Origin: Candidatus Entotheonellaceae bacterium
Lineage (GTDB): Bacteria > Tectomicrobia > Entotheonellia > Entotheonellales > Entotheonellaceae
Assembly: GCA_965238075.1 (NCBI GenBank)
Contig: OZ250173.1
Location: 1,696,001-1,760,000 of the forward strand
DNA: 64,000 nt
Direction: 5' to 3'
The position numbers and the translations under genes are program-made. Below, in pieces: positions 27,449 through 53,157 of the stretch. Position 1 is the stretch's first letter, and every line of letters starts with the position of its first letter. A model generated the notes under the pieces. It saw nothing but the letters and a program-made list of their open reading frames with translations. It had not been told where the DNA came from and ran no database searches.

Positions 27449-27700
27449 ACCGCGCTCCCAATGGGATAGGTACTGAATGCGTTGTAACGGGGTCGATTGA
27501 TTCCCACTGCGCGATGGATACAGGCGTCGAGGAGACAAATCGCGCCCGTATTCGGTGGCGAAGACAACGACCTTTGGGACCATGACACAGAAGGTCGTAG
27601 TAGAGGCGGTTTCATAACTATCTGATAGCTGTCGCAAGTAAATGAGTTAGTGATGTTACGCACTGTTTGAGTCATTGGGTCAAGAAGTGGATGAGAGACT

Positions 27701-28150
27701 ATGAACAGAGAATTCGTAGACCTCTTCAGCGATTACCTCTTGAGTTCCCCCGTTCAAGCCGGGGGCAGGCTCTTTGGCGCAACCACCGCAACGGGTCTCT
27801 CAGACCTGCTCGAAGGTTCCCTCAGCCATGACCCGATAACCCGCTTCCTATCCCAACAACGCTTTGGCTCCAAAACCCTCTGGCAACTCGTCAAACCCAT
27901 GGTGCGCGCCATCGAAGACGACGCGGGCGTCCTTATCTTCGACGACACCATTGAGGAAAAGCCCTATACGGACGAAAACGAACTCATCTCCTGGCACTTC
28001 GACCACAGCAAGAACCGCACCGTCTAAGGCATCAATCTGCCTAACTGTGTCTATCACGCCCAAGGCACCACCCTGCCCGTGGCCTACGAACTCATCGGTA
28101 AACCCATCGTCTACCGCGATGCGAAAACGGGCCGCTTGAAGCGCGAGAGC
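27701..28150 (+). mobile_element. IS701-like transposase N-terminal fragment with in-frame stop at 28025
   Basis: SHD.ITRFL, VLIFDDTIEEKPYTDEN motifs. Confidence 0.75.
27749..27772 (+). repeat. Family A 24-nt element
   Basis: CCCGTTCAAGCCGGGGGCAGGCTC; adds PVQAGGRL. Confidence 0.85.
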
Positions 28151-28158
28151 ACCTGTTC

Positions 28159-28365
28159 CAAGGCCGTTGGCGCAGTTACAGCTGCGAAGAACTGACGGCC
28201 CGCGACAAGACCAGCCTCGACATATTCTGGCTCAAGGACAAGAGCCTGACGGACCTGGACAACCTGCCCGGGCCCGACGACCTTGCCGAAGAGATCATCG
28301 AAAACTTGGAAGCTGGCCTCAACAGCTTCCGCGAAGTGCTCGCCGATTTGCAGCAGGCAGGGTAG
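28159..28365 (+). pseudogene. C-terminal remnant of type I R-M methyltransferase (HsdM)
   Basis: Manual translation GRWRSYSCEELTARDKTSLDIFWLKDKSLTDLDNLPGPDDLAEEIIENLEAGL; no start codon. Confidence 0.75.
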
Positions 28366-28830
28366 TTGAACGAGCGGTCGGAGCAGGGCAAGGCAGCCAT
28401 CTGAAAATACAATTTCCGCCCCCCTGCTATTGTCCTTAAGCGGGTATGGCACCAGAACGGGGAGCCGCCCGCTGTAAAGGGAAAAATCATCGCGATGGCG
28501 TCTCCGTAGTCCGGCTGAAAAACGCTATGTTGCCGCATTTAGCCCGGCAGCAGCATTCGCTCGAAACCCACGAATATATGTACCCGCTCAGAATTCAAAA
28601 GAACCCAATGAGGGAGGCTTCGTGCATATGATCCCGTTACGATTGTTGCTGTGCTTCCTTGCCCTGGTCTTACTGACCTCGGCTCGCCATGACGAACCGG
28701 GGCCGAGGCACTGCTGGTACCGGGCTCGGTCTACGAATGGCCCCGGCCAGGCGAGCACCCCGACCATTGCGCCGTATCGGCGGATTTCCTGTTGTTGGGA
28801 AGGTGATCGTCTGGGCATGTGCGGGAGCCT

Positions 28831-28864
28831 CCCTCTTCCTGGCCCTGCCCCGCCAGGGGGGAGG
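28831..28864 (+). repeat. Family B palindrome, degenerate intergenic copy
   Basis: CCCTCTTCCTGGCCCTGCCCCGCCAGGGGGGAGG. Confidence 0.55.
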
Positions 28865-28989
28865 ACAAGGTCCTGGCGGGACTTGAAGCAGCTACCAAGA
28901 GTGTCTATCATGGCTGCTGTTTGTATCACGAAAAAGGGGACGGAAATCAGGGGCTTGGGTTCTGGAACCACATTCGGGAAACGCGCACG

Positions 28990-30018
28990 ATGAACAGCCA
29001 AATGCACAAGCCGACCGGGGGCGACATCAGCGGCAGGCTGCGGATTCTTCTGGCCGCGGCCGTTTGCGCGATGATGCTTCTGGGCTCGCCGGCTGGTTGG
29101 GCGCAGGAGGCGCAGACGCTGGACGGCATCGCGGCGGTGGTGAACGAGGAAATCATCACCATCGGCGAAGTGCGCGAGGCGATGGCCTTCGAGGTGACGC
29201 AACTGGCCCGGACCTATCGCGGCGAGCGGTTGCAGAAGCAGCTTTCCGCCACGTACAAGCAGACGCTGAACAACCTCATGGACATCCAATTGCAGCTTGC
29301 CCGGGCGCGGCAGTTGCAAATGAGCGTCAGTGACGGCGAGATTGACCGGCAAGTCGATGCGCTGAAGGAACAGAACCAGATTTCCGACGACCAGTTGGTG
29401 CAGATGTTGAAAAGCCGCGGCATGACCCTGGAGACCTACCGGCAGCAGATCCGCGAGGGTCTGCTGGTCACCAAGGTCGTCAACGCCGAGGTGCGGTCGC
29501 GCCTCATCATCCTCGACAGCGAGTTGCAGGAAGCTTACGAGGCGCGGCAGGAAAGCTACCGCATCGCCGGCACCCAGACGGTGAGTCACGTCCTATTTCT
29601 ACTGCCGGAGCGCGCCTCGGATGACGACGTGGCGCAGCGGCGCGCCGAAGCCGAGCGCGTGTTGCAGGAAATCCGAGACGGTGGCGATTTTGCGGCTCTG
29701 GCGCGTCAGCACTCCGAAGGGCCGTCGGCGGAACGCGGCGGCTTGCTGGGTACCTTCCAGGCCAACGAACTGCTGCCGGGCTTCGATGAGGCAACGGCCG
29801 GCCTGCTGCCCGGCGAAGTCAGCGACGTGGTACGCACCCGGGTGGGCCTGCACGTCATTCGCCTCGAAGACCGGCAGGCCGATAGCTTCAAGTCATTCGA
29901 CGACGTCAAAGAGGAACTCAAGAACCAACTGCGGCGCGAGAAGACCGAGGCCAAATACCAGGAATGGCTTGAGGCCCTGCGGCTACAGGCGTACGTCAAG
30001 ATCCTGTATGAGGATTAG
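28990..30018 (+). CDS. SurA-family peptidyl-prolyl isomerase
   Basis: Signal peptide, IAAVVNEEIIT, HVLF, FAALARQHSEGPSAERGG.LG rotamase. Confidence 0.9.
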   Translation: MNSQMHKPTGGDISGRLRILLAAAVCAMMLLGSPAGWAQEAQTLDGIAAVVNEEIITIGEVREAMAFEVTQLARTYRGERLQKQLSATYKQTLNNLMDIQLQLARARQLQMSVSDGEIDRQVDALKEQNQISDDQLVQMLKSRGMTLETYRQQIREGLLVTKVVNAEVRSRLIILDSELQEAYEARQESYRIAGTQTVSHVLFLLPERASDDDVAQRRAEAERVLQEIRDGGDFAALARQHSEGPSAERGGLLGTFQANELLPGFDEATAGLLPGEVSDVVRTRVGLHVIRLEDRQADSFKSFDDVKEELKNQLRREKTEAKYQEWLEALRLQAYVKILYED

Positions 30019-30025
30019 CGCCCGT

Positions 30026-30048
30026 GCCCCTTGAGGGCTCTTTTTTTT
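30026..30048 (+). terminator. Possible intrinsic terminator/attenuator between surA and pyrR
   Basis: GCCC-CTTGA-GGGC followed by TC and T8. Confidence 0.5.
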
Positions 30049-30079
30049 GCCCGCTGCCCAACACTGACGGAGGTTGCAG

Positions 30080-30631
30080 GTGGGAAGACGTACAAAGCTT
30101 GCTGGCAACAGGCAGGTGCTGGACGCCGCGAGCATCGAGCAGGCGCTGTGGCGCATCGGCCGCGAGATCGGCGCGCGTAACACCCCGGCGACACGCCTCG
30201 TGCTCATCGGCATTCGCACCCGCGGCGTGCCGCTGGCCATTCGGCTGGGCACCCTCATCAAGAACGATACCGGCACGGACATACCCGTCGGGACCATCGA
30301 CATCACGCTTTACCGTGACGACCTCAAGGCTCGCCAAGGCCGACCGGTGCAGGCGACACACATTCCCTGCCCGCTCGACGCCCGGCACGTGGTGCTGGTG
30401 GATGACGTGCTGTACACCGGGCGCACCATTCGGGCGGCCATGGACGCACTCACCGATTTCGGGCGCCCGTTGTCGATCCAATTGGCGGTGCTGGTCGACC
30501 GCGGCCACCGCGAGTTCCCCATTCAGGCCGATTACGTCGGCGCCAGCCTGGAAACCGCGCACGATGAGCAGGTGCGCGTGCAGGTAAGTGAAATCGACGG
30601 CCAGGACGCCGTTAGCCTCAAAGCTTGCTAG
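30080..30631 (+). CDS. pyrR: Pyrimidine operon regulator / UPRTase
   Basis: DITLYRDD, VDDVLYTGRTIRAA, DRGHRE.PI.ADYVG. Confidence 0.95.
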   Translation: MGRRTKLAGNRQVLDAASIEQALWRIGREIGARNTPATRLVLIGIRTRGVPLAIRLGTLIKNDTGTDIPVGTIDITLYRDDLKARQGRPVQATHIPCPLDARHVVLVDDVLYTGRTIRAAMDALTDFGRPLSIQLAVLVDRGHREFPIQADYVGASLETAHDEQVRVQVSEIDGQDAVSLKAC

Positions 30632-30737
30632 CCAGAGGCGGCCCCGCCACAGCGAGCGCAGCCGAGCGTATAGACTAAACCCAAGCGAGCGCAGCGAGTC
30701 CTGGCTTGATGCAACCGTTCAGGAAAGACGCAACGTC

Positions 30738-31667
30738 ATGAGTTCGATCAGCTTCCGTGGCCGCGACCTCCTGGACGTTGAAACCCTCTCCGCCGAGGAC
30801 ATTCAACACATTCTGGACGCCGTTCCCTCCTTCAAGGAAGTTTCCGCGCGCGACATCAAGAAAGTCCCGACCCTGCGCGGCAAGACTGTCATCAACCTGT
30901 TCTTCGAACCCAGCACGCGGACGCGCACCTCGTTTGAAATCGCCGGCAAGCGCCTCAGCGCCGACGTGGTGAACATCTCCGTGGCGACCAGCAGCTTCAG
31001 CAAGGGCGAAAGCCTGCGAGACATGGCCGACAACCTTGCGGCGATGCAGGCCGACGTGCTGATCGTGCGCCACCACGTCGCCGGGGTGCCGCATTTCCTG
31101 GCGCGCTCCGTGCCGCAGCCGGTCATCAATGCCGGCGACGGCGCCCACGAGCACCCCACCCAGGCACTGCTGGACGTCTTTACGCTGCAGGAAAAATGGG
31201 GTTCGCTGCAGGGCCGAAGCGCCTTGATCGTCGGGGATATCGCCAGCAGCCGCGTGGCACGCTCGAACGTGCTGGCCATGCGGAAACTCGGCATGCAGGT
31301 CTGCGTCTGCGGCCCGCCTACCATGTTGCCGGTGGGTCTCGATCAGCTCGGCGTCGAGTCCACCAGCGACTTCGACGCGGCCATCCAGTCCACCGACGCC
31401 GTCATGATGCTGCGCATGCAGCGTGAGCGCCACAAGGACGTGCTGTTCCCGTCGCTGGCGGAATACGCCGAGCGCTACTGCCTCACCGGCGAGCGCCTGC
31501 GGCGCGCCAGGGCGGGCGTGGTGGTGATGCACCCGGGCCCCATCAACCGGGGCGTGGAGATCGCCCCCGAGGTGGCAGACGGCTTGGCGTCGGTAATTTT
31601 GCAACAAGTCACCAACGGCGTCGCGGTGCGCATGGCCCTGCTCTACCTGATTCTGGGAGGCGGCTAG
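30738..31667 (+). CDS. pyrB: Aspartate carbamoyltransferase
   Basis: FFEPSTRTR, HEHPTQ, HPGP.NRGVE. Confidence 0.97.
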   Translation: MSSISFRGRDLLDVETLSAEDIQHILDAVPSFKEVSARDIKKVPTLRGKTVINLFFEPSTRTRTSFEIAGKRLSADVVNISVATSSFSKGESLRDMADNLAAMQADVLIVRHHVAGVPHFLARSVPQPVINAGDGAHEHPTQALLDVFTLQEKWGSLQGRSALIVGDIASSRVARSNVLAMRKLGMQVCVCGPPTMLPVGLDQLGVESTSDFDAAIQSTDAVMMLRMQRERHKDVLFPSLAEYAERYCLTGERLRRARAGVVVMHPGPINRGVEIAPEVADGLASVILQQVTNGVAVRMALLYLILGGG

Positions 31668-32998
31668 TGGACTTGCTGATTCGCGGCGGGCGGGTCGTCG
31701 ACCCGGATCAGGGGCTGGATGCCCACCTGGACGTGCGCGTCGCCGAAGGCCGCATTGCCGAGATCGGGCGCGAACTACCGTTCCCCGCCCTCAAGGGGAG
31801 GGGGATGTCGCCTGCAGGCGGGCCGCCGTCCGCGACGCCGCGGGTTGTGGAAGCCGCCGGCTGGATTGTGGCGCCGGGTTTTATCGACATGCACACCCAC
31901 TTCGGCGAGCCGGGCTACGAACACCGCGAAACGATTGCCAGCGGGCTTGCCGCCGCTGCTGCCGGGGGCTTCACCGCGGTGGCAATGATGCCGGATACTC
32001 AACCGGTGCACGATACGCCGACGGTGACCGAATACATCCTGCGGCGCGCCGGCATCGCGTGCGGCACCCGACTCTACCCGGTGGGCGCCATAACCGCAGG
32101 CTTGCAGGGCGAATCGCTGGCCGAAATCGGCGGCATGCACAGGGCCGGCATCGTGGCCCTATCGGATGCCCCCCAATCCGTCGGCAGTGCTCGCCTGATG
32201 CGCCGCGCCATGGAATATGGCCGCATGTTCGACCTGCCGATCCTGTCGCATTGCGAGGATCGAGTACTCGCCGGCAACGGCGTCATGCACGAGGGCGTGG
32301 CGTCCACCGTTCTGGGTCTGCCGGGGGTGCCGGCGGCAGCGGAAAGCATCATCGTGTACCGTGATATCCAATTGGCAACGCTGAGCGGCGCCCATCTGCA
32401 CGTGCAGCACGCGAGCACGGCGGAAACGGTCAGGCTCCTGCGGTACGCCAAGGACCGGGGCTTGAACGTGACGGCGGAGACCTGTCCGCATTACCTGACG
32501 CTGACCGATGAGGCCGTCAAGGGTTACGACACCAACAACAAGGTCAACCCACCGCTGCGCCCGTCGCCGGACGTCGAGGCAGTGCGGGCCGGGCTGCGGG
32601 ACGGCACGATTGACGCCATCGCTTCCGACCACCTGCCGCAGCACGTGGCCGACAAGGAGCAGGATTACCTGGCGGCGGCGGCGGGCATGATCGGCCTGGA
32701 AACCAGTGTCGGCCTGGCCCTGCGGCTGTACCATGACGGCCTGCTTTCCCTGCCGAAACTGGTTGCCGTCTACACGAGTCGCCCGGCCCACATTCTCGGC
32801 CTGCCGCACGGCACGCTGCGAGTCGGTGAGCTGGCCGACATCACCCTGATCGATCCCGAGCACGAGGTCGAAGTTGACGCTGCCGCCTTGCACTCGCGCA
32901 GCCAAAACACCCCGTTTCTGGGTTGGCGGTTGCGCGGTGCGGCGATGGCGACGATTGTCGAGGGGAGGATCATCTTTGAGCGCAAGCAGGGAGTGTGA
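31667..32998 (+). CDS. pyrC: Dihydroorotase (with palindrome-derived N-terminal loop insertion)
   Basis: PGFIDMHTH, KVNPPLR, ASDH. Confidence 0.95.
   Translation: MDLLIRGGRVVDPDQGLDAHLDVRVAEGRIAEIGRELPFPALKGRGMSPAGGPPSATPRVVEAAGWIVAPGFIDMHTHFGEPGYEHRETIASGLAAAAAGGFTAVAMMPDTQPVHDTPTVTEYILRRAGIACGTRLYPVGAITAGLQGESLAEIGGMHRAGIVALSDAPQSVGSARLMRRAMEYGRMFDLPILSHCEDRVLAGNGVMHEGVASTVLGLPGVPAAAESIIVYRDIQLATLSGAHLHVQHASTAETVRLLRYAKDRGLNVTAETCPHYLTLTDEAVKGYDTNNKVNPPLRPSPDVEAVRAGLRDGTIDAIASDHLPQHVADKEQDYLAAAAGMIGLETSVGLALRLYHDGLLSLPKLVAVYTSRPAHILGLPHGTLRVGELADITLIDPEHEVEVDAAALHSRSQNTPFLGWRLRGAAMATIVEGRIIFERKQGV
31782..31805 (+). repeat. Family B palindrome in pyrC
   Basis: TCCCCGCCCTCAAGGGGAGGGGGA. Confidence 0.8.
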
Positions 32999-33004
32999 AA
33001 CGCC

Positions 33005-34093
33005 ATGCGGGCCTTGTTAGTCTTGGCAGACGGAACGGTATTCGAGGGCAAGTCCTTCGGCGCGCCCGGAGAGGTTGCCGGAGAAGTGGTGTTCAACACC
33101 AGCATGACGGGCTACCAGGAAATCCTTACCGACCCGTCATACAAGGGGCAGATCGTCACCATGACGTATCCGCTCATCGGTAACTACGGCGTCAACCAGG
33201 AGGATTTCGAGTCGAGAAAGCCCTGGGCCGAGGGTCTGATTGTGAAGGAATGCAGCCCGGTGGTCAGCAACTGGCGCGCCCAGCAGAGCCTGCCCGACTT
33301 TATGCGCGAACACGACATCATTGGCATTGAGGGCATCGACACGCGCACGCTGACCCGCCGCTTGCGCGACCGCGGAGCCCAAGAGGGCATCATTTCGACC
33401 GTCGAGCTGGACCCTGACGTTTTGGTGGCGAGGGCGCGCGGCGTCCCGTCGATGAGCGGCCGGGATCTGGTAAAGGACGTCACTTGCGAAGCGCCATACG
33501 ACTGGACGGAAGACGCCCCAGCCTCTGCCACGCCGCTTGTCGTCGCCTACGACTACGGCATCAAGCACAACATCCTGCGCTACCTCACCCGCCGCGGCTG
33601 TCGTGTGCATGTGGTGCCGGCCAGCACCTCCGCCGATGCGGTGCTCGATCTGCAGCCGGACGGCGTTTTTCTGTCCAACGGCCCCGGCGACCCGGCAGCC
33701 CTGCCGGCGGCCATCGAACAGGTGCGACGGTTCATCGGCGTCAAACCGATCATGGGCATCTGCCTGGGCCATCAGATTCTCGCGCTCGCCAGCGGCGCCG
33801 AGACCGTTAAGCTGAAATTCGGACACCACGGCGGCAACCAACCGATCCGAGACCTGCACACCGAACGCGTCCTGATCACGGCGGAAAACCACGGTTTCGC
33901 CGTCGATCCGCGCACCCTGCCGGACGTCCTGGAAGTGACTCACATCAACCTGAACGACAACGTCGTCGAAGGCGTCAGGCACCGCGAGCTACCGGTTTTC
34001 TCGGTGCAGTTCCACCCGGAAGCGTCCCCTGGGCCGCACGACGCTGTTGACCTGTTTGAACCGTTTCTCACCAGTATGCGGCAAGGGAGTTGA
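33005..34093 (+). CDS. carA: Carbamoyl-phosphate synthase small subunit
   Basis: [30 protein letters not shown]. Confidence 0.98.
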
Positions 34094-34094
34094 A

Positions 34095-37418
<3,324 letters not shown>

Positions 37419-37429
37419 AAGGGGCCGCC

Positions 37430-38356
37430 GTGCCGAAGCCCGACTTGCGGGTGAACGTTGCCGGGTTGTGCCTGCAAAACCCTGTCATCGCGGCGTCGGG
37501 CACCTGTGGATACGGCGAAGAACTGCACCCCTTCGTTGACCTCGACCGCCTGGGCGGTGTGGTGGTGAAAGGCTTGTCGCTTGAACCGCGTCCCGGCAAT
37601 CCGGCGCCGCGGCTTGTCGAGACCACGGCCGGCATGCTCAACTCCGTCGGTCTCCAGAACGTCGGCATCGAGGCCTTCCTGCGCGACAAGCTGCCGCGTC
37701 TGCGGGGTTATCGCGCGAATATCGTGGTCAACTTCTTTGGTGATTCCCCGGACGAATACGCCGCGGTGGCGGCCCGTGCCAGTGAAGGGCAAGGCATTGC
37801 GGCTCTTGAAGCCAACATTTCCTGTCCCAACGTCCGGCACGGCGGCATGCTTTTCAGCAGTCATGCGCGTCTGACGGCAGAGGTCGTCGGAAAAATACGA
37901 CAAGCCACCCACCTGCCGCTGTGGGTCAAGCTCAGCCCGAATGTCACCGACATAACGGAAATCGCCCGCGCAGCCGAGGAGGCCGGCGCCGATGCGATCT
38001 CTCTGATCAATACAGTACTGGGCATGGCCATCGACCTGGAGGCGCGCCGGGCTGAGCTGCCACTCGGTTTCGGCGGTCTTTCGGGGCCGGCCATCAAGCC
38101 CATCGCGCTGCGCATGGTCTGGCAGGTATGCCAAGCGGTACGCATTCCTGTGGTTGGCATGGGCGGCATTATGAACGGCCGGGACGCGCTGGAATTTCTC
38201 CTGGCCGGCGCTGCGGCTTGCCAAGTGGGTACGGCAAGCTTCGCAGACCCCGCCGCCTGCCGAAAAATCGTATCCGAGATGGAAGACTATCTGCGGCGCC
38301 GCGGCATCGCCACGGCAGCCGAGCTTTGTGGCAAGCTGCAGACGCCAGCGGAGTAG
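37430..38356 (+). CDS. pyrD: Dihydroorotate dehydrogenase, family 1
   Basis: ASGT, NISCPN, KLSPNV, GGLSGPAIKP. Confidence 0.95.
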   Translation: MPKPDLRVNVAGLCLQNPVIAASGTCGYGEELHPFVDLDRLGGVVVKGLSLEPRPGNPAPRLVETTAGMLNSVGLQNVGIEAFLRDKLPRLRGYRANIVVNFFGDSPDEYAAVAARASEGQGIAALEANISCPNVRHGGMLFSSHARLTAEVVGKIRQATHLPLWVKLSPNVTDITEIARAAEEAGADAISLINTVLGMAIDLEARRAELPLGFGGLSGPAIKPIALRMVWQVCQAVRIPVVGMGGIMNGRDALEFLLAGAAACQVGTASFADPAACRKIVSEMEDYLRRRGIATAAELCGKLQTPAE

Positions 38357-38475
38357 CAACCGGGACACGCGGCTTGCGCGTGCGGTTTCCTGGCAATGGC
38401 AATGCACATTTCAATCGTCTATAGTGCCTCGGTTATACTGATCCCCATCCTACCGAGTCCGCCCCGCTAGCGGCG

Positions 38476-40130: not shown

Positions 40131-40242
40131 GAGCCGTTTTCCCTTCCTTTTGTGGACCCGAAGCGATCCAAAAACCAGCGTTAACGGCAGTATAGCCGAT
40201 CCCGTGTAACCGACGCCCGACTCTGAGGCCGAAGGAACAGCC

Positions 40243-42332: not shown

Positions 42333-42344
42333 AAGGGCAGAAAT

Positions 42345-42773
42345 TTGGAACGCACGCTAGCCATCATTAAACCGGACGCCGTGGGGCGCAACCTGGCCGG
42401 CAACATCATCGCACGCTTGCAAGGCGAGGGGTTCGTCGTGCTCGGGCTGAAAATGATCCGCCTCAGCCAGGACGACGCCAAGCGCTTTTACGCCGTACAC
42501 CGCGAGCGGCCGTTCTTCGACAGCCTGACCGCCTACATGGCGTCAGGGCCGATCATTCCGCTGCTGCTGCAACGCGATGAGGCCATCAAGACCTTGCGAG
42601 ACGTGATGGGCGCCACCGACCCGAGCCAAGCGGCGCCGGGCACCCTGCGGCAGGAATTCGGCGTTGACGTGGAGAAAAACTCCATCCACGGGTCCGATTC
42701 GCCCGCTTCGGCGGCGCAGGAAATCCCGTTCTTCTTCAGCCAACTGGCGTGTCACGAGGCAGAACCCCGCTGA
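42345..42773 (+). CDS. ndk: Nucleoside diphosphate kinase
   Basis: ERTLAIIKPDA, NSIHGSDS; TTG start. Confidence 0.96.
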   Translation: MERTLAIIKPDAVGRNLAGNIIARLQGEGFVVLGLKMIRLSQDDAKRFYAVHRERPFFDSLTAYMASGPIIPLLLQRDEAIKTLRDVMGATDPSQAAPGTLRQEFGVDVEKNSIHGSDSPASAAQEIPFFFSQLACHEAEPR

Positions 42774-43349
42774 CCTGCTGTTCCCACCTTGGTACGCGGG
42801 CGTCTCGCCAGCAAATCCCCTGACCTTCCTCACGCGGCCCCCTGCTTCATGCGCCGGGGAACCGGCGCCGTGGTCGGGACGCACTGTACACGACAAAAGT
42901 CATTAAGTAGTTGAAAGAATAGGTGTAACCTCCTATCGTGGAAGGTCTACCAAGCCTATCCACAACACCTGACGTGTCAGGAGATTACACCCATTAAGCA
43001 CTCTGCCAGACTCGCCGACCTGCTCCAATCCACCTTTGGCTTACACCGGGCTCGCGTCGCCTGTCTGGCCGCCCTTGTCATCGCCCTGTTCAGGGTCAAA
43101 ACCGTCAACCTCGCCCAACTCGCCACCGCCTTTCCGGGGACTGCCGAGATCGGCGCCTGCAACGCTTCTGCCAACACGTCCAACTCCAACCCGCGCGCGT
43201 GGTCACATTCGTGCTCGCTTTTCTACCCGACGCCCCCTACACCCTGACTCTCGATCGAACCCAGTGGATGCTTGGCAGGGTGCCCATCAACTTCCTCGTC
43301 CTGTCCGTCGTCCACGACGGCACCGCCTTCCCTCTTTTCTGGCGCGTCC

Positions 43350-43373
43350 CTGAATCAAGTTCAGGGCAGGCTC
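43350..43373 (+). repeat. Family A 24-nt element
   Basis: CTGAATCAAGTTCAGGGCAGGCTC; reads PESSSGQA. Confidence 0.9.
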
Positions 43374-43806
43374 TGGCCAAAAGGGGCAACTCCAATACCC
43401 AGGAGCGCATCGAGTTGCTGGGTCAGTTCCTCACGGTGGTTGGGGGCGACAAGATTGACTGTCTGGTAGCTGACCGAGAGTTTATCGGCGCCACCTGGTT
43501 CGCCTGGCTCAGAGCCAACCACATCCCCTTGTGCATCCGAACACGACATGCGGGTCTCGCGGACAACCGGAGCCTTATCACCGGCGCGCAACTTTTTCAG
43601 AAGTCTTCCCCGTTCGACCTCGTGTTCCTTGATCGGCCCGCGTCTCGTTTGCGGCCACTGGCTTTGGGTAACCGGTCTGCGCTTGTCCTGTGGGGCTTAT
43701 TTGATCGTGGTGTCAAATCGTCCGGGTCATCGAGCCCTGGAGATGTATAAGCAGAGGTGGCAGATAGAGGTACTCTTCGAGGCGCTCAAATCAAGAGGCT
43801 TCAACC

Positions 43807-43830
43807 CTGAATCGAGTTCAGGGCAGGCTT
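43807..43830 (+). repeat. Family A 24-nt element
   Basis: CTGAATCGAGTTCAGGGCAGGCTT; absent from paralogous IS at ~6720. Confidence 0.92.
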
Positions 43831-44053
43831 TTGAGGAGACGCGCTTGAGAGATGCCAAGCGCTTGGAGACGTTATGTGGTGTGTTGGCGATAGCGTTTTG
43901 CTGGGCCTATCATGTAGGTGCTTGGTGGCATCGGCTCAAAGCGATCCCGCTCAAGACGCATCAGAGAGCCGCGAAAAGCCTGTTTCGCCATGGATTTGAC
44001 GGCATTCGCCAAGCCGTCCTTAATGTGACAGACAAGTGGGAGCAGTTTGAGCA

Positions 44054-44077
44054 GAGCCTGCCCCGACCCGATCCGGG
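44054..44077 (-). repeat. Family A 24-nt element
   Basis: Minus strand CCCGGATCGGGTCGGGGCAGGCTC. Confidence 0.85.
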
Positions 44078-44219
44078 GTCCTCAGCCTGCTCTGGAAGGT
44101 GCTCACTTCGCCCAAAGCGCTTCTCCATCCACTCTACCCTACATAATTTTCGTGTACAGTGATCGCGACGTTCCCCTTCATCGTGTGGGAAAAGAAGGGC
44201 TGTCGTACTGGAGGAGGGG

Positions 44220-44615
44220 TCAGCCACTCAGCCCATCCAGCAGCCATTGCGGGAACCTCACCGGCCGTTGCTGGTCGTTGACACACATGTGCGTGGTAGT
44301 GCCGGAGGCCAGGAGTTGCTCCTGTCGGGTGACTTCGTAGGCATAGCACAGTTGGCGGGATTTCAGCTCCTGCACGCGGGTACGCACGGTGATTTCCTCA
44401 TCGTAACGCGCGGAAGCGGTCAGGCGGCACTGGAATTCGGTGACCGGGAAGTAATACCCGCGGCTTTCCAACTCGGTGTACGGCATGCCGACCGCCCGCA
44501 TGTATTCTGAACGGCCGCATTCAAACCACACCAGGTAATTGGCGTAGTAAACGATGCCCATCTGATCGGTCTCGGCGTACCGGGGGCGCAGGTGCAGGCT
44601 GACGATTCGTGACAT
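44220..44615 (-). CDS. Acyl-CoA thioesterase (YbgC/4HBT family)
   Basis: RYAETDQMGIVYYANYLVWFE. Confidence 0.92.
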   Translation of the reverse strand: MSRIVSLHLRPRYAETDQMGIVYYANYLVWFECGRSEYMRAVGMPYTELESRGYYFPVTEFQCRLTASARYDEEITVRTRVQELKSRQLCYAYEVTRQEQLLASGTTTHMCVNDQQRPVRFPQWLLDGLSG

Positions 44616-44650
44616 GGGTTCGCTTTCCGCTCCGCAGGCGGCAGGGGTGG

Positions 44651-45793
44651 TTATTGGTCGTAGGTGATGCGGTAGATGACACCGGCGCGGTCGTCCGAAA
44701 CCAGCAGGGCGCCGTCGGGCATGACTAGCACGTCCACGGGGCGTCCCCACGCTTGCGCGCCGCGCAGCCAGCCGTCCACGAACACCTCGTACTCCTCAGC
44801 CTGGTCGCCCGCCAGTTTCACCCGCATGACGCGATAGCCGATCGGCGTGCTGCGATTCCAGGAGCCGTGCTGCGCCACGAAGATCTGATGCCGGTACGCC
44901 TCGGGAAACATGCTGCCTGTGTAAAACCGCATCCCCAACCCGGCGACGTGCGGGCCGAGGGCAACCACCGGCGACTCGAACTCCGAGCACGGCCGCTCGC
45001 TGCCGAATTTCGGGTCGGGAATTTTGCCCTCGTGGCAGTATGGAAAGCCGAAGTGCAGCCCGGGACGCGGGGCGTGGTTGAGTTCGTCCGAGGGGCGATT
45101 ATCGCCCAGCATGTCGCGGCCATTGTCGGTGAACCACAGCTCGTGGGTTTCCGGGTGCCAGTCGAATCCCACCGAGTTGCGCACCCCGCGGGCAAACGGT
45201 TCCAACCCGGTTCCGTCCGGGCGCATGCGGAGGATGGCGGCGTAGCGCGGGTCGTCGCTACGCTCGCACACGTTGCAGGGCGCGCCGACCGGTACATACA
45301 TCAGGCCGTCGGGGCCGAAGGCGATGAATTTCCAGCCGTGATGGCGGTCGTTGGGCAGGGTGTTGATAACCACTGAAGGCCGCGGCGGGCGGTCCAATCT
45401 GGCTTCGATGTCGTCGTAGCGGAGGATACGGCTCACCTCGGCCACGTACAGCGACCCGTCTCGGAAGGCAACACCGGTGGGCAGGTTCAACCCACGGGCA
45501 ATGGAGATGACGGTTTCGGCCTTGTGGTCGCCGTCGCGGTCCACAACGGCGTAAACTCGGCCCGCGCGGCGGCTGCCTACGAACACGACGCCGCTGGGGC
45601 TCAGGGCCATGGCGCGGGCGTTCGGGACGTCGTCGGCGTAGAGACTGATGGAAAACCCGGGCGGCAGGTTGAGAGTGTGCAGGGGCAGTTGCTTGGCCTC
45701 GACCGCCGTCGCGTATACGGCCACACAAAGGACGACAAGCACGCTGATATGGGCGCCAAGGCTGGGATGTGTTTTCCGTCGTAAAACTGACAT
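44651..45793 (-). CDS. PQQ-dependent sugar/sorbosone dehydrogenase family, secreted
   Basis: HHGWKFIAFGPDG, RGVRNSVG, HGSWNR, GRPVD. Confidence 0.9.
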   Translation of the reverse strand: MSVLRRKTHPSLGAHISVLVVLCVAVYATAVEAKQLPLHTLNLPPGFSISLYADDVPNARAMALSPSGVVFVGSRRAGRVYAVVDRDGDHKAETVISIARGLNLPTGVAFRDGSLYVAEVSRILRYDDIEARLDRPPRPSVVINTLPNDRHHGWKFIAFGPDGLMYVPVGAPCNVCERSDDPRYAAILRMRPDGTGLEPFARGVRNSVGFDWHPETHELWFTDNGRDMLGDNRPSDELNHAPRPGLHFGFPYCHEGKIPDPKFGSERPCSEFESPVVALGPHVAGLGMRFYTGSMFPEAYRHQIFVAQHGSWNRSTPIGYRVMRVKLAGDQAEEYEVFVDGWLRGAQAWGRPVDVLVMPDGALLVSDDRAGVIYRITYDQ

Positions 45794-45896
45794 GAAACCT
45801 CCGGAGCGCCGCGGCGCCGATTCGTCAAGATTGAGTCATCGAGGGTTGGAAACGATTGCAGTCCATGTTAGCGCGTTCGGTCAGCCGCTCGCAAAC

Positions 45897-47492
45897 TCAC
45901 GCCGGGCTTGCCTGTCTCCGGGGCCGGCTGGCCAGCCGCCGCACGACAATCCACGCCATGGGCAGACAGGCCAGGAGGAACGCCACGCCAATCATCAGAA
46001 AGCTGTCGCGGAAGCCCGCGGCAACGGCCTCCAGGTCCATCTGTTGCTTGATCGTCTTCAAGGCTCCCCAATCCGCGTTTCCATCCATGATTCCGGCTCG
46101 ATTCAGGTAGCGCTTCACGTCGTCCAGGGCCGTCGTATGGGTGGGCGCCATGGCGTCGTATTCGTGGTAGCTCACCAATTGGTGCGCAGCGCGCTGCCGT
46201 TCAAAGAACACGCTGGTCACGGTGACCCCGAGGCTGGCGCCGATGTTGCGCGTGACGCCCATCAAGCCCTGGCCCATGCGCACGTCCTCTGGCGGCAGCA
46301 TCTGAACGTTGAGTGCCGTCAGCGAGGTGATGGTCGAAAACATGCAGGTGCGATACAGAATGATGTAGCCGATCAACACGCCGGCGGTCGTCAGCGTCGT
46401 AACCGTGGCGAAACTCATGAACACGCCGGTGAGCACCACGAACCCGACCGTGGCCATGACGGCAGGCGAAATCATGTCGTTGAGACGGCCGCTGACCACG
46501 CCGCTCAGTCCCGATACGATCAGCGCCGGCACGATGATCAGGCCAGCCTGTAATGGCGTGAACCCCATCACCTGCTGCAGAAAGATCGGCACCATGAATT
46601 GGGCGCCGAAAAGGCCGATCATATTGAAGAATGCCGTGACGCAGACGTTTCGAAGCCCGGCGCGGCGAAACAGCCGCAGGTTCACGGCGGGGAAACGGGT
46701 GAACAGTTCCCACAGGATGAACAGGCTGCCGCCGGACGCAGCGCCAATGCCCAGGAGCACGATGGTGGACACGGCGGTGCTGCGGTCCCGCGCCAGGCTG
46801 ATCGCCAGCAGCAGCGGTACCAGAAAGCCGCCCAGGAACGTGAGACCCAGGTAGTCGACCGGCTCGCGGCGCCCATCGCGTTGCTGCGGGAGCATCAGCC
46901 AACCCAACAGCACCGACAGGACGCCGGTGGGCAGGCCCATGAAGAAGATCAGGCGCCACGAGACGTGCTCAAGGAAGTAACCGCCCAAGGTGAACGAAAT
47001 GATGTGTCCGGCCGACCAGCCGACGGTGCGCAGCCCCAGCGCCAAGCCCCGCTGCCGGGCCGGAAACGTCTGTACCAGAATGACCGCCGTCAAGCCCTCC
47101 ATCGGTCCCAGCGCGGTACCTTGCAGCAGTCGGAAGAAAACCAGCATGGGCAGATTGGTAGCCAAGCCGCAGCCGATCGATGAAATGACGAAACCCGCCA
47201 TGATGGTCACGAACAGATTGCGGTTCCCCATGACTGCGCCGAGCCAGCCCAGCATGGGGATCATCAGCGTGCGGGCGATGAGAAAGCCGGTGGTGACCCA
47301 TTGCGTGGTCGCCAAGTCCGTGCCAAACGCCGCCATCAGCCTGGGAATGGCCAGATTCACGCTGTTGCCGGCGAACGTCTGGGTTCCCCCTGCCACCAGG
47401 ACGATAGCGGCCACCAACCACTTGTAGCTCGGCGCTTCGGTATCCAGCGCCAATACGGTAGAGGCGCGCGCGCCTTCTACGGATCTTGCCAT
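45897..47492 (-). CDS. DHA2 (EmrB/QacA) MFS efflux transporter
   Basis: ~14 TM segments; QWVTTGF, FRLLQG, RNIGASLG. Confidence 0.9.
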   Translation of the reverse strand: MARSVEGARASTVLALDTEAPSYKWLVAAIVLVAGGTQTFAGNSVNLAIPRLMAAFGTDLATTQWVTTGFLIARTLMIPMLGWLGAVMGNRNLFVTIMAGFVISSIGCGLATNLPMLVFFRLLQGTALGPMEGLTAVILVQTFPARQRGLALGLRTVGWSAGHIISFTLGGYFLEHVSWRLIFFMGLPTGVLSVLLGWLMLPQQRDGRREPVDYLGLTFLGGFLVPLLLAISLARDRSTAVSTIVLLGIGAASGGSLFILWELFTRFPAVNLRLFRRAGLRNVCVTAFFNMIGLFGAQFMVPIFLQQVMGFTPLQAGLIIVPALIVSGLSGVVSGRLNDMISPAVMATVGFVVLTGVFMSFATVTTLTTAGVLIGYIILYRTCMFSTITSLTALNVQMLPPEDVRMGQGLMGVTRNIGASLGVTVTSVFFERQRAAHQLVSYHEYDAMAPTHTTALDDVKRYLNRAGIMDGNADWGALKTIKQQMDLEAVAAGFRDSFLMIGVAFLLACLPMAWIVVRRLASRPRRQASPA

Positions 47493-47689
47493 TTTCGATT
47501 CTCTTTCCGGCCCGGTTCTGACATCAAGATATGAAGCAGTGTAACCGAATCAGCGAGCCGAGCGTCGGTCTGAGGCCTCCGGTTTGTGCTATGGTAATGC
47601 TATTGGCGTTTTGAGGATATTGACGAGTTGCGGTTGCCCGCGCTGGACGATGACACCATCATTGGCGGTTTATGGGGAGAGAAAACGAA

Positions 47690-48895
47690 ATGGCCACGAC
47701 GCATCTTGACTATGCCAGTCTGTTCGCCAAAAACGCACCCGAAGGGGCAACATCTTGGGGTGGATTTCCGACCTACAACTTCGTCGGCGGCCATAACAAC
47801 CCCGAGACGATGCCCGTTGAAGACTTCGTCGAATCCTCCGCCCGCGTGTTGAGGCAGGAAGGCCAAAACCTGGCGACCTACAACATGGAAAGCGGCCCCC
47901 AAGGCTACACCGGGCTGCGCGGATTCCTCGTTGAGAAACTGGCCCACTATCGCGGCCTGCGGGCGCCCGATGAAAATATCCTGATCACATCGGGCTCCAA
48001 CCAGGGCATCGAGCTCATCAACGAAGTCCTGCTGGAACCCGGCGACACCGTGATCGCCGAGCTCTTCACGTATCAAGGCGTGGTGGGCCGGTGGCGCAAG
48101 CTGCAGGTGAACGTGGTCGGCATTCCGCTGGACGAAGACGGCATGCGCATGGACGCCTTGGCCTCAACGCTCGCTGATCTTCGCAGCAACGGCGTCAAGC
48201 CCAAATTCATCTACACCATTCCCACCCTGCAAAACCCCACCGGCACGGTGCTCAGCCTGGAACGACGACACGAGATGCTGCGGCTCAGCCGGGAGTACGG
48301 GGTGCCGATCTTCGAGGATGAATGCTACGCCGATCTGATCTGGGAAGGCGAATGGCCGCCGGCCATCTGCGGTCTGGACGACAGCCACCACGTCCTGCAC
48401 ATCGGCTCCTTCTCCAAATCCCTGTCGCCCGCCCTGCGCCTTGGCTACGTCGTGGCGCCGTGGCAGGTGCTGAGCCGCATGCTGGCTTGCAAGACGGACG
48501 GCGGAACCGGCGCGCTGGGGCAAATGGTGGTGGCGGACTTTTTCCAGAACCACTACGAGGAGCACATGGACAAGTTGCGGACAAGCCTGAAGGTTCGATT
48601 GCAGACGCTGGCCGACGCCCTCGTCGAGCACTTCGGCTCGTCCGTCGAATTCCAGGCGCCGCGCGGCGGCATGTTCCTGTGGGTCAAGTTTCCGCCGGAG
48701 GTAGACACCCTGAAGTTGGCAGGTCCGGCGCTGGAGGCCGGTATTGCATACAATCCCGGGCCTGAGTGGGCCGTGGAACCCGACGCGGCACGCAACTACC
48801 TGCGGCTGTGTTACGCCCTGCCGTCCGAGCAGCTCATCAGGGATGGGATTGCCAAGCTGGCGCAAGTCTTCCGGCGGGAGGCGGGCATCCCCTGA
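47690..48895 (+). CDS. PLP-dependent aminotransferase (class I/II, 2-aminoadipate/MocR-domain-like)
   Basis: IYTIPTLQNPTG, GSFSK..PALRLG, GGMFLW. Confidence 0.9.
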   Translation: MATTHLDYASLFAKNAPEGATSWGGFPTYNFVGGHNNPETMPVEDFVESSARVLRQEGQNLATYNMESGPQGYTGLRGFLVEKLAHYRGLRAPDENILITSGSNQGIELINEVLLEPGDTVIAELFTYQGVVGRWRKLQVNVVGIPLDEDGMRMDALASTLADLRSNGVKPKFIYTIPTLQNPTGTVLSLERRHEMLRLSREYGVPIFEDECYADLIWEGEWPPAICGLDDSHHVLHIGSFSKSLSPALRLGYVVAPWQVLSRMLACKTDGGTGALGQMVVADFFQNHYEEHMDKLRTSLKVRLQTLADALVEHFGSSVEFQAPRGGMFLWVKFPPEVDTLKLAGPALEAGIAYNPGPEWAVEPDAARNYLRLCYALPSEQLIRDGIAKLAQVFRREAGIP

Positions 48896-48930
48896 CGGCG
48901 CCGGCGGCTTGCGCCGCGGGCCGTCCGACG

Positions 48931-49338
48931 CTATTCGTAGACCATCCATTCCAGTAGGTTGTCGTCCGGGTCGCGGGCATACAGGCTCAACGACGGCGCT
49001 TTGCCGCGACCGCGCCCACCCGAACGCGGCACCGGGCCTTCGATGATCGTGACGCCCGCTTCTTCCAACATGCGCTGGCAATCGGTCACGCTGCCTTCCC
49101 ACACGAAGCAAATGTCCGTGCAGCCGGGCACCGCCGTCGGCCCCCGCAGCCCGGCGGTAAACCCTTCGGGGTGCACGTTGATTTTCGACTCTCCCACCTG
49201 GAGCGAGAAAATCGGCATCGTGCCGGCCCGCCATTCCGCCTCATTGTTGATGGGAAAACCAAGGCCCTTGTAAAACGCGAGCAATGCCTCAGCGTCTGCT
49301 GTCGGCATGGCGATGTGATCGATTCCAACGGTTGCCAT
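48931..49338 (-). CDS. VOC/glyoxalase family protein
   Basis: IDH, EGPVPR.G, SLYARDPD.NL.E. Confidence 0.85.
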   Translation of the reverse strand: MATVGIDHIAMPTADAEALLAFYKGLGFPINNEAEWRAGTMPIFSLQVGESKINVHPEGFTAGLRGPTAVPGCTDICFVWEGSVTDCQRMLEEAGVTIIEGPVPRSGGRGRGKAPSLSLYARDPDDNLLEWMVYE

Positions 49339-49380
49339 TGCAATCCCCCCTTTGCTGTGTCGCCTGATCGATTGCAGGCG

Positions 49381-52300
49381 TTACGTCAGAGCCGCCAAAG
49401 CCGTTTCCACGTTGTTCATCTGTTCCTTACACGTCGCCAGGCGGTCGCGCTCTTTCTGCACGACCTCCGGGCTCGCTTTGCTGAGAAACTGCTCGTTCGC
49501 CAGCTTGCGCTGCGAGCCGGCGATGCGACCGCGAAGCTGATCCCGCTGTTTGGTCAGACGGTCGCGCTCCTTTGTCATGTCAATCACACCCGGGACATAA
49601 ACCTCAACACCGCCCACCACGGCGGTGGCGGCATCCGGGGTGCGTTGGATGTCGGGCGAGATGTCGACGGCGTCAAGGCGCGCCATGTTCATGAGCAGGT
49701 CGGTCACACCCCGCAGTATTTCAGCGTCGGCTTCATTAGCCCGAATATGGGCGGAAATCCTAGCCTGCGGCGGAATCGTATATTTGCTGCGCAAGTCACG
49801 AATGCCGCGTACGACTTCCTGCAGAAACGCGATACGCGCCTCGACAGCGGCGTTCCGCCAAGCCACTTCTGAGGTGGGCCAGGGCGCATGGATCAACAGC
49901 GGCGTGGCCGCCAACGGCTCGTCGATGCCACGCTGCGGCGCTTGCTCGTTGAGGGCTTCCCAAAGACGCTCGGTCAGGTACGGCACAAACGGGTGAAAGA
50001 GACGCAAAACCTGATCGATGGTCATCGCCAAGACCTGCTGGGCAACACCGGCCTGAGCAGCGTCGCGCAAGCGCGGCTTGATGAATTCGAGATACCAATC
50101 GCACAACTCGCCCCAGAAGAAATCCCGCGCTGCCCATAACGCGGCTGCCGGATTATAGGACGATAGGTGGCCGTGCACGGTCTCGACCGCGCGAGAAAGC
50201 CGCGACAGGATCCAGCGATCCTCGGCAGCGAGATCATCGATCTGCAAGGGCTGAAAGGCCGCATCGGTCAGATTCATGAGAGCAAAGCGCACGGCGTTCA
50301 AGAGCTTGTTGCAAAAATTGCGTCCTGCCTCGAAGCGCTCGCTCACCAGCTTGGCCGCCGGCACCTCGGGCATGGTGCCGAGCACGTCAAACTCCTTGCC
50401 CGTTGCCGGACACAGATAGGTAAAAATGCTCTGCCCGTGCTGCGCCGTGGCCAGGTCGATGAAGTCGCCCGTATACGGCGAGATCGCTTGCACCGGCAGG
50501 CGGATATCCTGCATGCCGGTCTGCATGTCGCACAGCACATAGCGCATGGCGTCGGCGCCGTAGCGTTCAATGATGTCCACGGGGTCGATGCCGTTGCCCT
50601 TGGACTTGCTCATCCGCTCGCCCTTGCCGTCCAGGATATTGGCGTGGATGAACACGTCGGTGAACGGCACGTCGCCCATGTTGTAAAGGCCCATGATCAC
50701 CATGCGGGCCACCCACAGGGTGATGATGTCGCGCCCGGTGACAAGGCATGAGCCGGGGTAGTAATAGGACAGGGTGTCGGGAAAGCCGTTCTGGCTTCGC
50801 ATGGGTGGCTGGCCGGCGTTGACCTCAGCGGTTTCCGGGTCGGGCCACCCGAGGGTGCTTTGCGGCCACAGACCGCTGGAAAACCAGGTATCGAGCACGT
50901 CCGGGTCCTGCGTCAGCCCCTGATCGGCGCATATCTGGACCAACGCCGTCTCAGCTTCGAGGTCTCGCAGGCAAGCCATGACTTCCACTTCGCTGCCCGC
51001 GGCGAAGGATTCGGGTAGGCCGCGTGCGTCGTCGGAAGTTTGCAGCACGACGTTCGCCCCGTTGGCATCGACTAGGCGCAAGCACAGGTCGCCCCGCTCG
51101 AGATGCGGCGTGAGGGCGCTCAAAACATCCTGCAGAGCGCTGCCCGTGAACGTGCCGGTCCACACCGGAATGCGATGCCCCCACCAAAGCTGGCGGCTGA
51201 TACACCAATCCCGCTTTTCGCCCAGCCATTGCAGATAGGTGTTGCCGTAGCGCACCGGGTCGGGGTGGAAGCTGACGTTGCGGCCGGTCGGCGAACGCCA
51301 GTCGCCCCCCGTTCGGGCCGGGGGCAGGCTCTGCGCCGCATCCATCGCCGCCTGCGCCAAGCCCGGCGCCGCAAAGGCGTTCGGCGTGCCGCGCCCACAG
51401 ACGATACCGCCGTCAACATCCCCCATTTTGACAAACCACTGTCTGGAGAGATAGGGCTCGATAGGTGTCTTGGAGCGGTCCGAGTGGCCGATCTCGATGT
51501 CGCGCGCCTCCCTGGCTTCTAGCAGATCGCGCGCCTGCAAATCCGCCGTCACGCGCTCGCGGGCCACGAAGCGGTCCAGCCCTCCGTAGGGCCCGGCATT
51601 GGCGTTCAGTGTGCCGTCTTCATTGAGGATATTGATGCGGTCGATCTCGTCCTGATGCCGCGTCCATACGTCATAGTCGTTCGGGTCGTGCGCCGGGGTG
51701 ATCTTCACGCAGCCGCTGCCGAGTTCGGGCTTGACCCACTCGTCGCAAATCAGCGGTATGGGACGGTCCAGCAGGGGCAGGCGCGCTTGGCGACCCTCCC
51801 GAGCCATACGAACCAGGGCGAGCAGCGTGGGCAGATGGCTCGCCTGCCGCTCTTCGAGTCGGGCCACCTCCTCCGCCAGAGCGGCTTGCTCGCGCGGCGG
51901 CGCCTGTTCCAGACGGCGCTGCGTCTCGGCGATGCGGGCCGCGAGAACGCCCGCCGGATCGGGATGACAGGCCACCGCGGTGTCGCCGAGCATGGTTTCC
52001 GGGCGCGTCGTGGCTACCACCACGTGGGTCGGCTCGCCCGGCTGCGGGTCCACGATCGGATACCGTAGATAGTAGAAATGGCCTTGCACGGCCTCGTAGA
52101 CGATCTCGTCATCGGCGACGGCCGTTTGCAGTTGACAGTCCCAATTGACCAGCCGATGACCGCGGAAAATCAGGCCGTCGCGGAACATCGCAAAGAACGT
52201 CCAGCGCACGGCATGCGCGCACACCGGGTCCATGGTGAAGCGCTGGCGGTCCCAGTCGCACGAGCAGCCCATGCTTTGCTGCTGTTGGACGATGCGTTTC

Positions 52301-52677: not shown

Positions 52678-52728
52678 GGAACCGCCTTCCTTGAGGTTGG
52701 AAACCGTAGTGGAGCTTGGCTTGATCAC

Positions 52729-53054: not shown

Positions 53055-53157
53055 TTCAACCAGCGTACTTTGCTCCTCAAGGCGTGCCGCGAAGGCGTAT
53101 TGGCGGGGTCGGGTCGCATTGCGGGATGCGGTGCCCAGCGAGTCGGAAACAAGAACT

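Follow-up and report, generated by a model that had tools for sequence, protein, structure and literature searches.

We describe a 24-nt hairpin element, here termed family A, that recurs in a 64,000-nt stretch of the genome of a Candidatus Entotheonellaceae bacterium (the window: bases 1696001-1760000 of a single 3.35-Mb contig, 62.3% G+C). Family A enters DNA as an exact 24-nt block without target duplication, and we consider it very probable that it is a real, recently active element mobilized in trans. A full copy consists of a 19-nt hairpin (7-bp stem and 5-nt loop, usually TCAAG) followed by CAGGCT, and the stems of the window copies vary but pair (CCCTGAA/TTCAGGG, CCCCCGT/.CGGGGG and CCCCGGA/TC.GGGG). 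A preliminary description of this DNA had listed five exact 24-nt copies and a truncated one; all six lie where it placed them, and one of the five (c4 below) measures 23 nt. Throughout, G000 denotes the genome of the window, G001-G005 its congeners, G041-G045 five distant carriers, and L-numbers individual loci.

The insertions were read from 16 loci with empty sites in paralogues or congeners, of which 15 differ from the empty state by exactly 24 nt and one (c4) by 23. No target duplication was found at any of the 16, in agreement with what had been proposed from the window. Copy c1 (27749-27772, plus strand; the register may be 27748-27771), with the stem-loop variant CCCCCGT/TCAAG followed by CAGGCT, faces a 24-nt gap in both homologous insertion sequence (IS) copies of congener G004. 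Copy c2 (43350-43373, plus strand, stem CCCTGAA/TTCAGGG) faces such a gap in all three congener homologues, and c3 (43807-43830, plus strand, stem CCCTGAA and loop TCGAG) in four of five, the fifth (L084) being filled at the same site. Both c2 and c3 also show an exact 24-nt gap against IS paralogues within the genome; the empty paralogous site for c3 lies at 6708-6743 on the minus strand (..GGGTTCAGCC|TTGAAGAG..), in another degenerate copy of that IS. Copy c4 (44054-44076, minus strand) is decayed, its hairpin reduced to 18 nt by the loss of one 3'-arm base, and corresponds to a 23-nt gap in five of five homologues. The span 44054-44077 previously given for it as 24 nt takes in one flanking G, the 3' arm being one base short relative to all five empty homologues. 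Copy c5 (51308-51331, plus strand, loop TTCGGGC) lies in valS, which is read from the opposite strand, and keeps its frame, adding the residues SLPPARTG; a clean 24-nt gap was found in all five congeners with 86-94% flank identity. Aligning host genes to orthologues, as had been suggested, thus recovered empty sites with an exact 24-nt difference and no ancestral filling at valS. For the truncated sixth copy (5829-5848, plus strand), which retains the whole hairpin CCCTGAATCAGGTTCAGGG plus C and lacks the AGGCT tail, no empty counterpart was found.

The reverse comparison gave the same unit. When 50 congener copies were sought in G000, 22 counterparts spanned both flanks and 28 had none; 11 of the 22 were filled and 11 were empty (L008, L009, L017, L019, L024, L032, L033, L038, L050, L051 and L054). 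All 11 gaps read as 24 nt, with L017, which aligned as 22, attributed to a separate nearby 2-nt indel. Each of the 16 filled and empty pairs differs by a single hairpin unit, and the inverted unit of two repetitive extragenic palindromes (REPs) that characterizes a REPIN (REP doublet forming a hairpin) was not encountered. The asymmetric tail and the lack of duplication likewise separate family A from miniature inverted-repeat transposable elements, whose marks are terminal inverted repeats and a target-site duplication produced by a DDE transposase.

The distribution of filled sites among species indicates when the element moved. Copy c5 is present in G000 alone, and L038, in gltB, is present in G005 alone and absent from the five other genomes; both are recent because each is unique to one species. 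L033 is common to the five congeners, with G000 alone empty (about 2173600), and it is old because it is shared by all five. Family A was active both before and after the species split within the genus. The empty state of G000 at L033 may reflect allele replacement by recombination or precise excision; the former reading arises because the G000 flanks are unusually divergent. A comparison of L033 and L098-L101 with G000:C1 at about 2173600 showed that G000 and G005 differ much more in these flanks than at other places. Orthologous empty sites were also sought in the genus of G044, where the three copies examined sit in repeat-rich spacers that fail to align at 76-80% identity. In contigs from four runs, each of a different study, c5 is spanned in the filled state with no 24-nt skip; one run is an RNA library, which can hold DNA, and assembled contigs are blind to rare alleles.

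Copies of family A were enriched over chance across the genome, as a motif search suggested by the preliminary description confirmed. Using a fixed-geometry score built from stem pairs, loop, tail and leading C's, with the reversed G000 sequence as control, we found 42 copies at a score of at least 17 compared to 0 in the reversed genome (at a score of 16, 21 sites compared to 7). Within the window, the tail motif GGCAGGCTY occurs six times against an expected 1.72 +/- 1.22, a count reached in 1 of 100 shuffles; the sixth match (33286-33294, minus strand) is without a hairpin. The earlier observation that the arms vary yet covary held across the genus, with 316 of 350 stem cells in 50 distinct sequences forming Watson-Crick pairs compared to 259 +/- 4.5 after shuffling; none of 2000 shuffles attained the observed count. 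Stem pairs 4-7 each show two to three different Watson-Crick pair types, and this covariation is not circular because the congener search pattern left these four pairs free. The orthologous L033 copy in G004 carries a compensatory A-T to G-C stem change in situ. The stem is constrained at the level of structure, and the flank CAGGCT (AGCCTG on the other strand) is fixed in 37 of the 50 distinct genus sequences, the remainder being one-base variants.

We then assessed how widely the element is distributed. Among 41 relatives sampled, the strict pattern was found in all six genomes of the genus and in none of the other 35, comprising eight sister-genus genomes of the same family and 27 more distant ones. 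A wider scan of one genome per species returned at least 120 stretches, with 125 matches among those listed, which include Dehalococcoidia and other Chloroflexota, Alpha-, Beta- and Gammaproteobacteria, Binatia, Thermodesulfobacteriota, Bacteroidota, Brocadiaceae, Acidobacteriota and others. The scan pattern has 17 specified bases, and some tens of chance matches are reckoned in that much DNA. All four free stem pairs were complementary in 95 of the 125 listed matches (three in 28 and two in 2), with full pairing expected by chance in about 0.4%. Genomes of Dehalococcoidia, Binatia, Xanthomonadales, Alphaproteobacteria and other groups hold family A in multiple copies. The five distant genomes G041-G045 gave 20, 60, 9, 20 and 36 matches compared to 0 in backward-pattern controls, and three carriers are cultured isolates. 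It was also noted that 29 viral contigs carry family A, with 24 of their 32 matches fully paired, and that a small set of stem variants is encountered repeatedly across phyla. Family A is cosmopolitan rather than local, and it is found on phage or prophage contigs as well.

The empty sites also define the target. They keep one C, which in the filled state forms the outermost stem base pair, so that the C's noted earlier as preceding the copies and extending the hairpin do so with the outermost C of the 7-bp stem supplied by the target. Because the empty sites keep this C, at least 10 loci rule out a register of the whole hairpin plus CAGGC. An ambiguity of one base is left, the unit being CC..CAGGCT inserted at C^CTG or C..CAGGCTY inserted at CC^TG. 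Across 73 non-identical sites of the genus, the target reads G52 [A36/C20] C71 ^ [C48/T20] T59 G44, where the search pattern partly dictates the C at -1, which is nevertheless present in every empty site. In other phyla, 142 sites gave C92/T31 at +1, T102 at +2 and G57 at +3 on the right. The C^T rule of the preliminary description fits the five window copies but is not universal, with T as the second base past CAGGCT in 59 of 73 genus sites and 102 of 142 sites in other phyla. The target C^YTG is complementary to the tail bases CAGG, with G pairing allowing C or T at the first position, and this complementarity is a hint that the target may be chosen by a guide.

Certain landing sites recur, namely the loops of CGTC-type REPs (GGAC^TTGA and CTTGAC^CCGG), other REP loops (GCGC^CTGCGC) and the repeat CCCTCACC^CTAACCCTCTCC. 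The last of these (CCCTCACC..CTAACCCTCTCC..(GGGAGAGGG)) is found in several phyla as a recurrent family A landing site, for example at L121, L124, L148, L156, L166, L173 and others and at G000:C1 875524 and 1055552. The CGTC-tagged REPs of G000 (CGTC-AC-CCCGGA-CTTGA-TCCGGG-GT-CCA and CGTC-AT-TCCGGG-CTTGA-CCCGGA-AT-CCAG) share the family A stem-loop, and their loops often take family A insertions. Examples lie at G000:C1 789563, 1299774 and 2651320, with outer hairpins at 1451359, 2100504, 2595737 and 3178991.

On balance, we regard family A as probably a non-autonomous, REP-like 24-nt mini-transposon with a stem of 6-7 bp, which may be moved in trans as single-stranded DNA with CAGG as its guide. 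In this scheme, movement would depend on a trans-acting enzyme that would cut and rejoin the DNA and would recognize the hairpin by its shape, which would account for the covarying stems. The target would be picked by 4-base pairing between CAGG, just 3' of the stem, and C^YTG, with a G.T wobble at the first target position that would permit either C or T there. Such logic would be that of the IS200/IS605 and REP/RAYT (REP-associated tyrosine transposase) systems, yet the enzyme would not be recognizable as a Y1 transposase. On its bottom strand, family A has the order CA^G-AGCCTG-hairpin, and CA is what would be predicted for a guide with TG at its end. The guide-pairing single-strand mechanism itself is put forward tentatively, as a possibility that in our judgment falls short of probable. 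Copies persist in tolerant gene loops, and are probably translated there, because the unit spans eight codons with five of six frames open.

Several observations weigh against this account. The right flank at L009, L035 and L036 is GATG, a poor fit to the target rule, and the preference for GAC^CTG within the genus may partly be survivorship at Asp|Leu codon boundaries. Tail variants are too scarce for guide-target covariation to be followed, with CAGGCT in 149 of 178 hairpins and the commonest variant in four copies. The guide lies 5' of the hairpin in IS608 and REPs but would lie 3' of it in family A, an arrangement with no tested precedent. A lagging-strand single-stranded mechanism predicts an orientation flip, and the G000 copies (27 plus, 12 minus) show none between GC-skew halves, in a genome with a flat skew curve that fails to close and with a poorly defined origin and terminus. 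The copies of G042 are oriented 30:30 with no obvious two-block pattern. Nor did the search for a gene reveal a common factor: Y1_Tnp was undetected in 4 of 11 carrier genomes (G005, G041, G042 and G045), IS110 was found in only 5 of 11, TnpB (PF01385) had no match in G000 with the control matching in 8 of 14 genomes, and no recurrent neighbor gene was found within 2.5 kb among 2836 open reading frames (ORFs) at 149 loci (L117-L265).

IS110 was accordingly rejected as the common factor. No match to Y2/IS91 (PF04986) was found in G000, though the control matched in no genome. An inverted-pair cluster at 2803-2805 kb of G000 contains an IS5-like transposase and no RAYT, and it was set aside.

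One alternative is that family A is simply an ordinary REP whose movement in each genome depends on a RAYT (TnpA-REP) or IS200-type Y1 transposase gene at another locus. Insertion without target duplication at a short motif, by a hairpin that bears a short fixed tag, is the signature of Y1 enzymes, and the top-strand 3' boundary falls directly after CT, a dinucleotide reported in PMC8266576 to be cut by TnpA-REP enzymes. Y1_Tnp matches number one in G000 and 2, 2, 1, 1 and 0 in G001-G005, with further Y1 genes in G043 and G044. The G000 gene is RAYT-like (L001 1120-1834; G000:C1 about 2465350-2466064; 25-26 bits to Pfam Y1_Tnp). It is bracketed by hairpins of the GCAGACA type, GAGCAGACA..TGTCTGCTC and AGGCAGACA..TGTCTGCCT, and is thus a REPtron of another REP family, while the congener RAYTs are flanked by other hairpins, GAGGGCA..TGCCCTC. 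A Y1 gene bracketed by family A, which the preliminary description had proposed to look for, was not found among those of the window genus (L001, L088-L093). As a protein query, the G000 RAYT found no counterpart in G005 or G003 and only 37-42% identical proteins in the other congeners, whereas family A is the same throughout. The four carriers without Y1_Tnp hold 15-60 copies each, and among them G005 has its lineage-specific insertion in gltB. Family A also lacks a GTAG or CGTC tag. Mobilization by HUH/Y1 enzymes, as originally suggested, finds no support in these results, and we consider this alternative improbable.

A second alternative is that no dedicated mobile-element enzyme is involved, and that a conserved host replication or repair activity cuts and rejoins single-stranded hairpins. 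This would account for the same 24 nt working in many phyla, near-identical in sequence and with the same few stem variants, and it fits with the finding of no element-linked gene. The CGTC REPs, which have the same hairpin, are likewise described as without a dedicated transposase (PMC3733652). A universal activity predicts something other than the patchy spread observed, with 0 of 8 sister-genus genomes and 0 of 27 more distant ones carrying the strict pattern, unless seeding is limiting. We know of no candidate host enzyme with this specificity, which counts against the host-activity alternative. Type IA topoisomerases typically show a simple preference for C at -4, which does not appear in the flank logo. 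We judge this alternative to be improbable as well, and to about the same degree as movement by a RAYT.

The copies inside genes bear on how the element is tolerated. By Pfam, the in-frame hosts are valS (c5), the large subunit of glutamate synthase (gltB, L038), an ABC transporter (L050), a MacB/FtsX permease (L009) and a pseudopilin that was hit twice, at G000 2244106 (common to G005) and at L051 (G001). The valS gene (49381-52809, minus strand) encodes a valyl-tRNA synthetase (ValRS) of 1142 aa with matches to tRNA-synt_1, Anticodon_1 and Val_tRNA-synt_C, and the segment holding c5 lies between two conserved blocks and exceeds the corresponding part of T. thermophilus ValRS 1GAX by 36 residues. 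As the unit is eight codons long, five of its six consensus reading frames are open (one example peptide being P-G-S-S-P-G-Q-A), and the sixth meets a TGA from the loop. Copies read in the TGA frame (valS, the pseudopilin of G000 and G005, and L051) all have stop-free loop variants, which argues that coding copies are translated and filtered by selection. The preliminary description had proposed that copies survive in ORFs by preserving the frame. This agrees with the in-frame copies in intact genes but does not describe most of the window, where five of six copies (c1-c4 and the 5829 copy) lie inside frameshifted or truncated IS genes and are uninformative on frame because their hosts are dead.

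Other candidate hosts were less clear. The copy at 862852, close to the 3' end of an ORF whose product has MmeI-type enzyme domains, was dropped as an in-frame case, since translation past the copy looks out of frame. For the ORFs at G000 1635151, 1350512 and 268779, Pfam gave no proof of real coding sequence at the copy. A DDE_5 IS with a family A copy near its 5' end was encountered six times among the G001 loci examined, and because of these six carrying copies the IS must have multiplied after gaining family A. DDE_5 (IS701-like) elements of this kind, with the family A copy about 90-110 nt into their long ORF, are found at L022, L025, L030, L043, L044 and L046 (G001) and at G000:C1 1336811. 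At G000:C1 1050300-1051900, tandem paralogous genes for small membrane proteins with NQRFDDQ-type repeats each have a family A copy overlapping the 3' end, with the TGA of the loop as stop codon.

These positions also bear on whether family A could be a functional RNA or DNA signal, such as a terminator, an RNA-stabilizing hairpin or a retro-inserted mimic of the tRNA T-arm and acceptor, kept by selection with the insertions as a side effect. The sequence is strongly conserved, and some copies lie at gene 3' ends and even provide the stop codon. Furthermore, the subfamily CCCCG-TTCAAGC-CGGGG + GCAGGCT has the 5-7-5+7 layout and the loop consensus of a tRNA T-arm with its 3' acceptor strand. 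However, the main subfamily has A where tRNAs carry T54, and no acceptor strand GCAGGCT was found among the 49 G000 tRNAs identified by aragorn. The best 3'-half match among these reached 17 of 24 positions of the consensus, and a tRNA origin was rejected. Rfam placed no family over six loci, the sole overlap being whalefall-1, whose 21 bits fall below the gathering score of 37. The occurrence of both orientations inside genes, together with the copies in dead IS, makes a signal function implausible, and we consider this alternative very improbable.

Compared with known systems, the mini-transposon reading of family A finds partial parallels. Mobile GC clusters of yeast mitochondria are tiny hairpins, rich in G and C, that multiply in a genome and in some cases insert in frame; no enzyme is known for them. 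They differ from family A in being organellar, in their AT-rich context, in sequence and in having short duplicated flanking motifs. The Rickettsia palindromic elements (RPEs) were reportedly described by Ogata et al. in 2000 as palindromic selfish DNA in frame in working genes. Elements of the RPE-1 type are about 100-150 nt long, far longer than 24 nt, and RPEs are confined to Rickettsia, whereas family A is cosmopolitan. Family A resembles them in behavior only, as an in-frame palindrome in conserved genes that stay open, and differs in size and sequence.

IS200/IS605 elements such as IS608 and ISDra2, and the gene-less palindrome-associated transposable elements, have two different end hairpins over hundreds of bases, depend on TnpA(Y1) and are biased in orientation relative to replication. 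With its single hairpin, family A measures 24 nt, is carried by G005, G041, G042 and G045, in which Y1 was undetected, and shows no clear strand bias, but it shares with them the lack of duplication (16 loci) and a short target (..C^YTG). Precise boundaries, hairpin ends and insertion without duplication by 4-5 nt of target pairing with an internal guide are described for IS200/IS605 in PMC8266576 and PMC6006769. REPtrons and REPINs, in which REPs are mobilized by a RAYT (PMC8266576, PMC2817692, PMC3116915, PMC3333891), offer further parallels. For TnpA-REP, a guide next to the hairpin is reported to select CT or CA cleavage sites (PMC8266576). These systems resemble the scheme proposed for family A in a single-stranded hairpin read by shape and in a guide tetranucleotide proposed to act beside the stem, and they share its lack of target duplication. 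The differences are that family A is a single hairpin and not an inverted REP pair, that none of the RAYT genes examined in the window genus is flanked by it and that its candidate guide is 3'.

The GTAG and CGTC REPs are also among the systems closest to family A. As presented in PMC3733652, these comprise many families of 20-40 nt hairpins with 4-5 nt loops, a short fixed head or tail and covarying stems, found in several phyla, and some lie inside ORFs and are read as protein; RPE-4 and RPE-6 are CGTC REPs. The CGTC REPs "seem lacking a dedicated transposase" (Di Nocera, De Gregorio, Rocco 2013, PMC3733652). Family A is similarly a short palindromic multi-copy repeat (24 nt, with 42 copies in G000 and 9-60 in the distant genomes), and the CGTC REPs of G000 have its CCCCGGA-CTTGA-TCCGGGG stem-loop. 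It differs in its head AGCCTG (tail CAGGCT), with no GTAG, CGTC or CCA tail, in its strict 24-nt length and in having one nearly invariant sequence over phyla. Its ends and ..C^YTG target were mapped from empty sites, a type of mapping that does not appear in the main text of PMC3733652. We would classify family A as a third type of REP-like element, headed by AGCCTG when read on the reverse strand, alongside the REPs tagged with GTAG or CGTC. Br-REP1 and Br-REP2 of Bradyrhizobium were also considered and have different sequences.

REP families without a transposase, and short REPs that lie within genes, are already known, and family A is no new category. What stands out is its 24-nt size, the mapping of its ends and target to within one base and the near-invariant sequence over phyla and phage contigs. 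For 13-15-nt strings of family A, no paper printing them was found, supplementary tables aside, the one match being an unrelated human primer. None of the REP/RAYT papers found by word search describes the sequence, though supplementary tables, such as those of PMC3733652, may list it. A bolder reading, which we regard as rather unlikely, is that family A is the smallest transposable unit mapped, moved by an unrecognized single-stranded DNA strand-transferase or a co-opted core enzyme through its hairpin and 3' CAGG guide, and spread through phyla and phages. If so, one conserved system would seed 8-residue loops into essential proteins across phyla.

How REP-like hairpins multiply is a long-standing question that is sharpest for families without their own transposase, and family A offers a clean handle on it, with its fixed 24 nt, its mapped ends and target and its recent entry into single-copy essential genes. 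The cultured, harmless carriers Dyella flava, Pseudoxanthomonas wuyuanensis and Luteimonas salinilitoris make transposition assays and protein pull-downs feasible. Selfish DNA of this kind can supply ready-made 8-residue loops rich in Pro, Gly and Ser to core proteins in many lineages, which is relevant to genome annotation and to the interpretation of indels in protein alignments.

The remaining features of the window concern the hosts and neighbors of the copies. The ORF containing c1 (27701-28027) is a DDE_5 transposase fragment with a weak match. Copies c2-c4 lie in an IS4-like transposase pseudogene (43199-44162, plus strand) made up of two overlapping frames, 43199-43750 and 43548-44162, neither of which has a Pfam match; its homologues behave like a multi-copy IS. 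The 5829 copy lies in a DDE_Tnp_1_assoc (ISAs1-like) fragment whose reading frame is lost downstream of the copy. Degenerate ISs were thus noted at 42900-44200 (IS4-like), 27700-28030 (DDE_5), 5690-5925 (DDE_Tnp_1_assoc) and 6520-6960 (the second IS4-like remnant). Just downstream of valS, aragorn identified tRNA genes (His, Lys, Leu-tag and Val-gac) at 52980-53320 and 56746-56819, and the 3' part of the tRNA-Leu(tag) (..GGGGCAGCC) loosely resembles the family A tail, at 14 of 24 positions.

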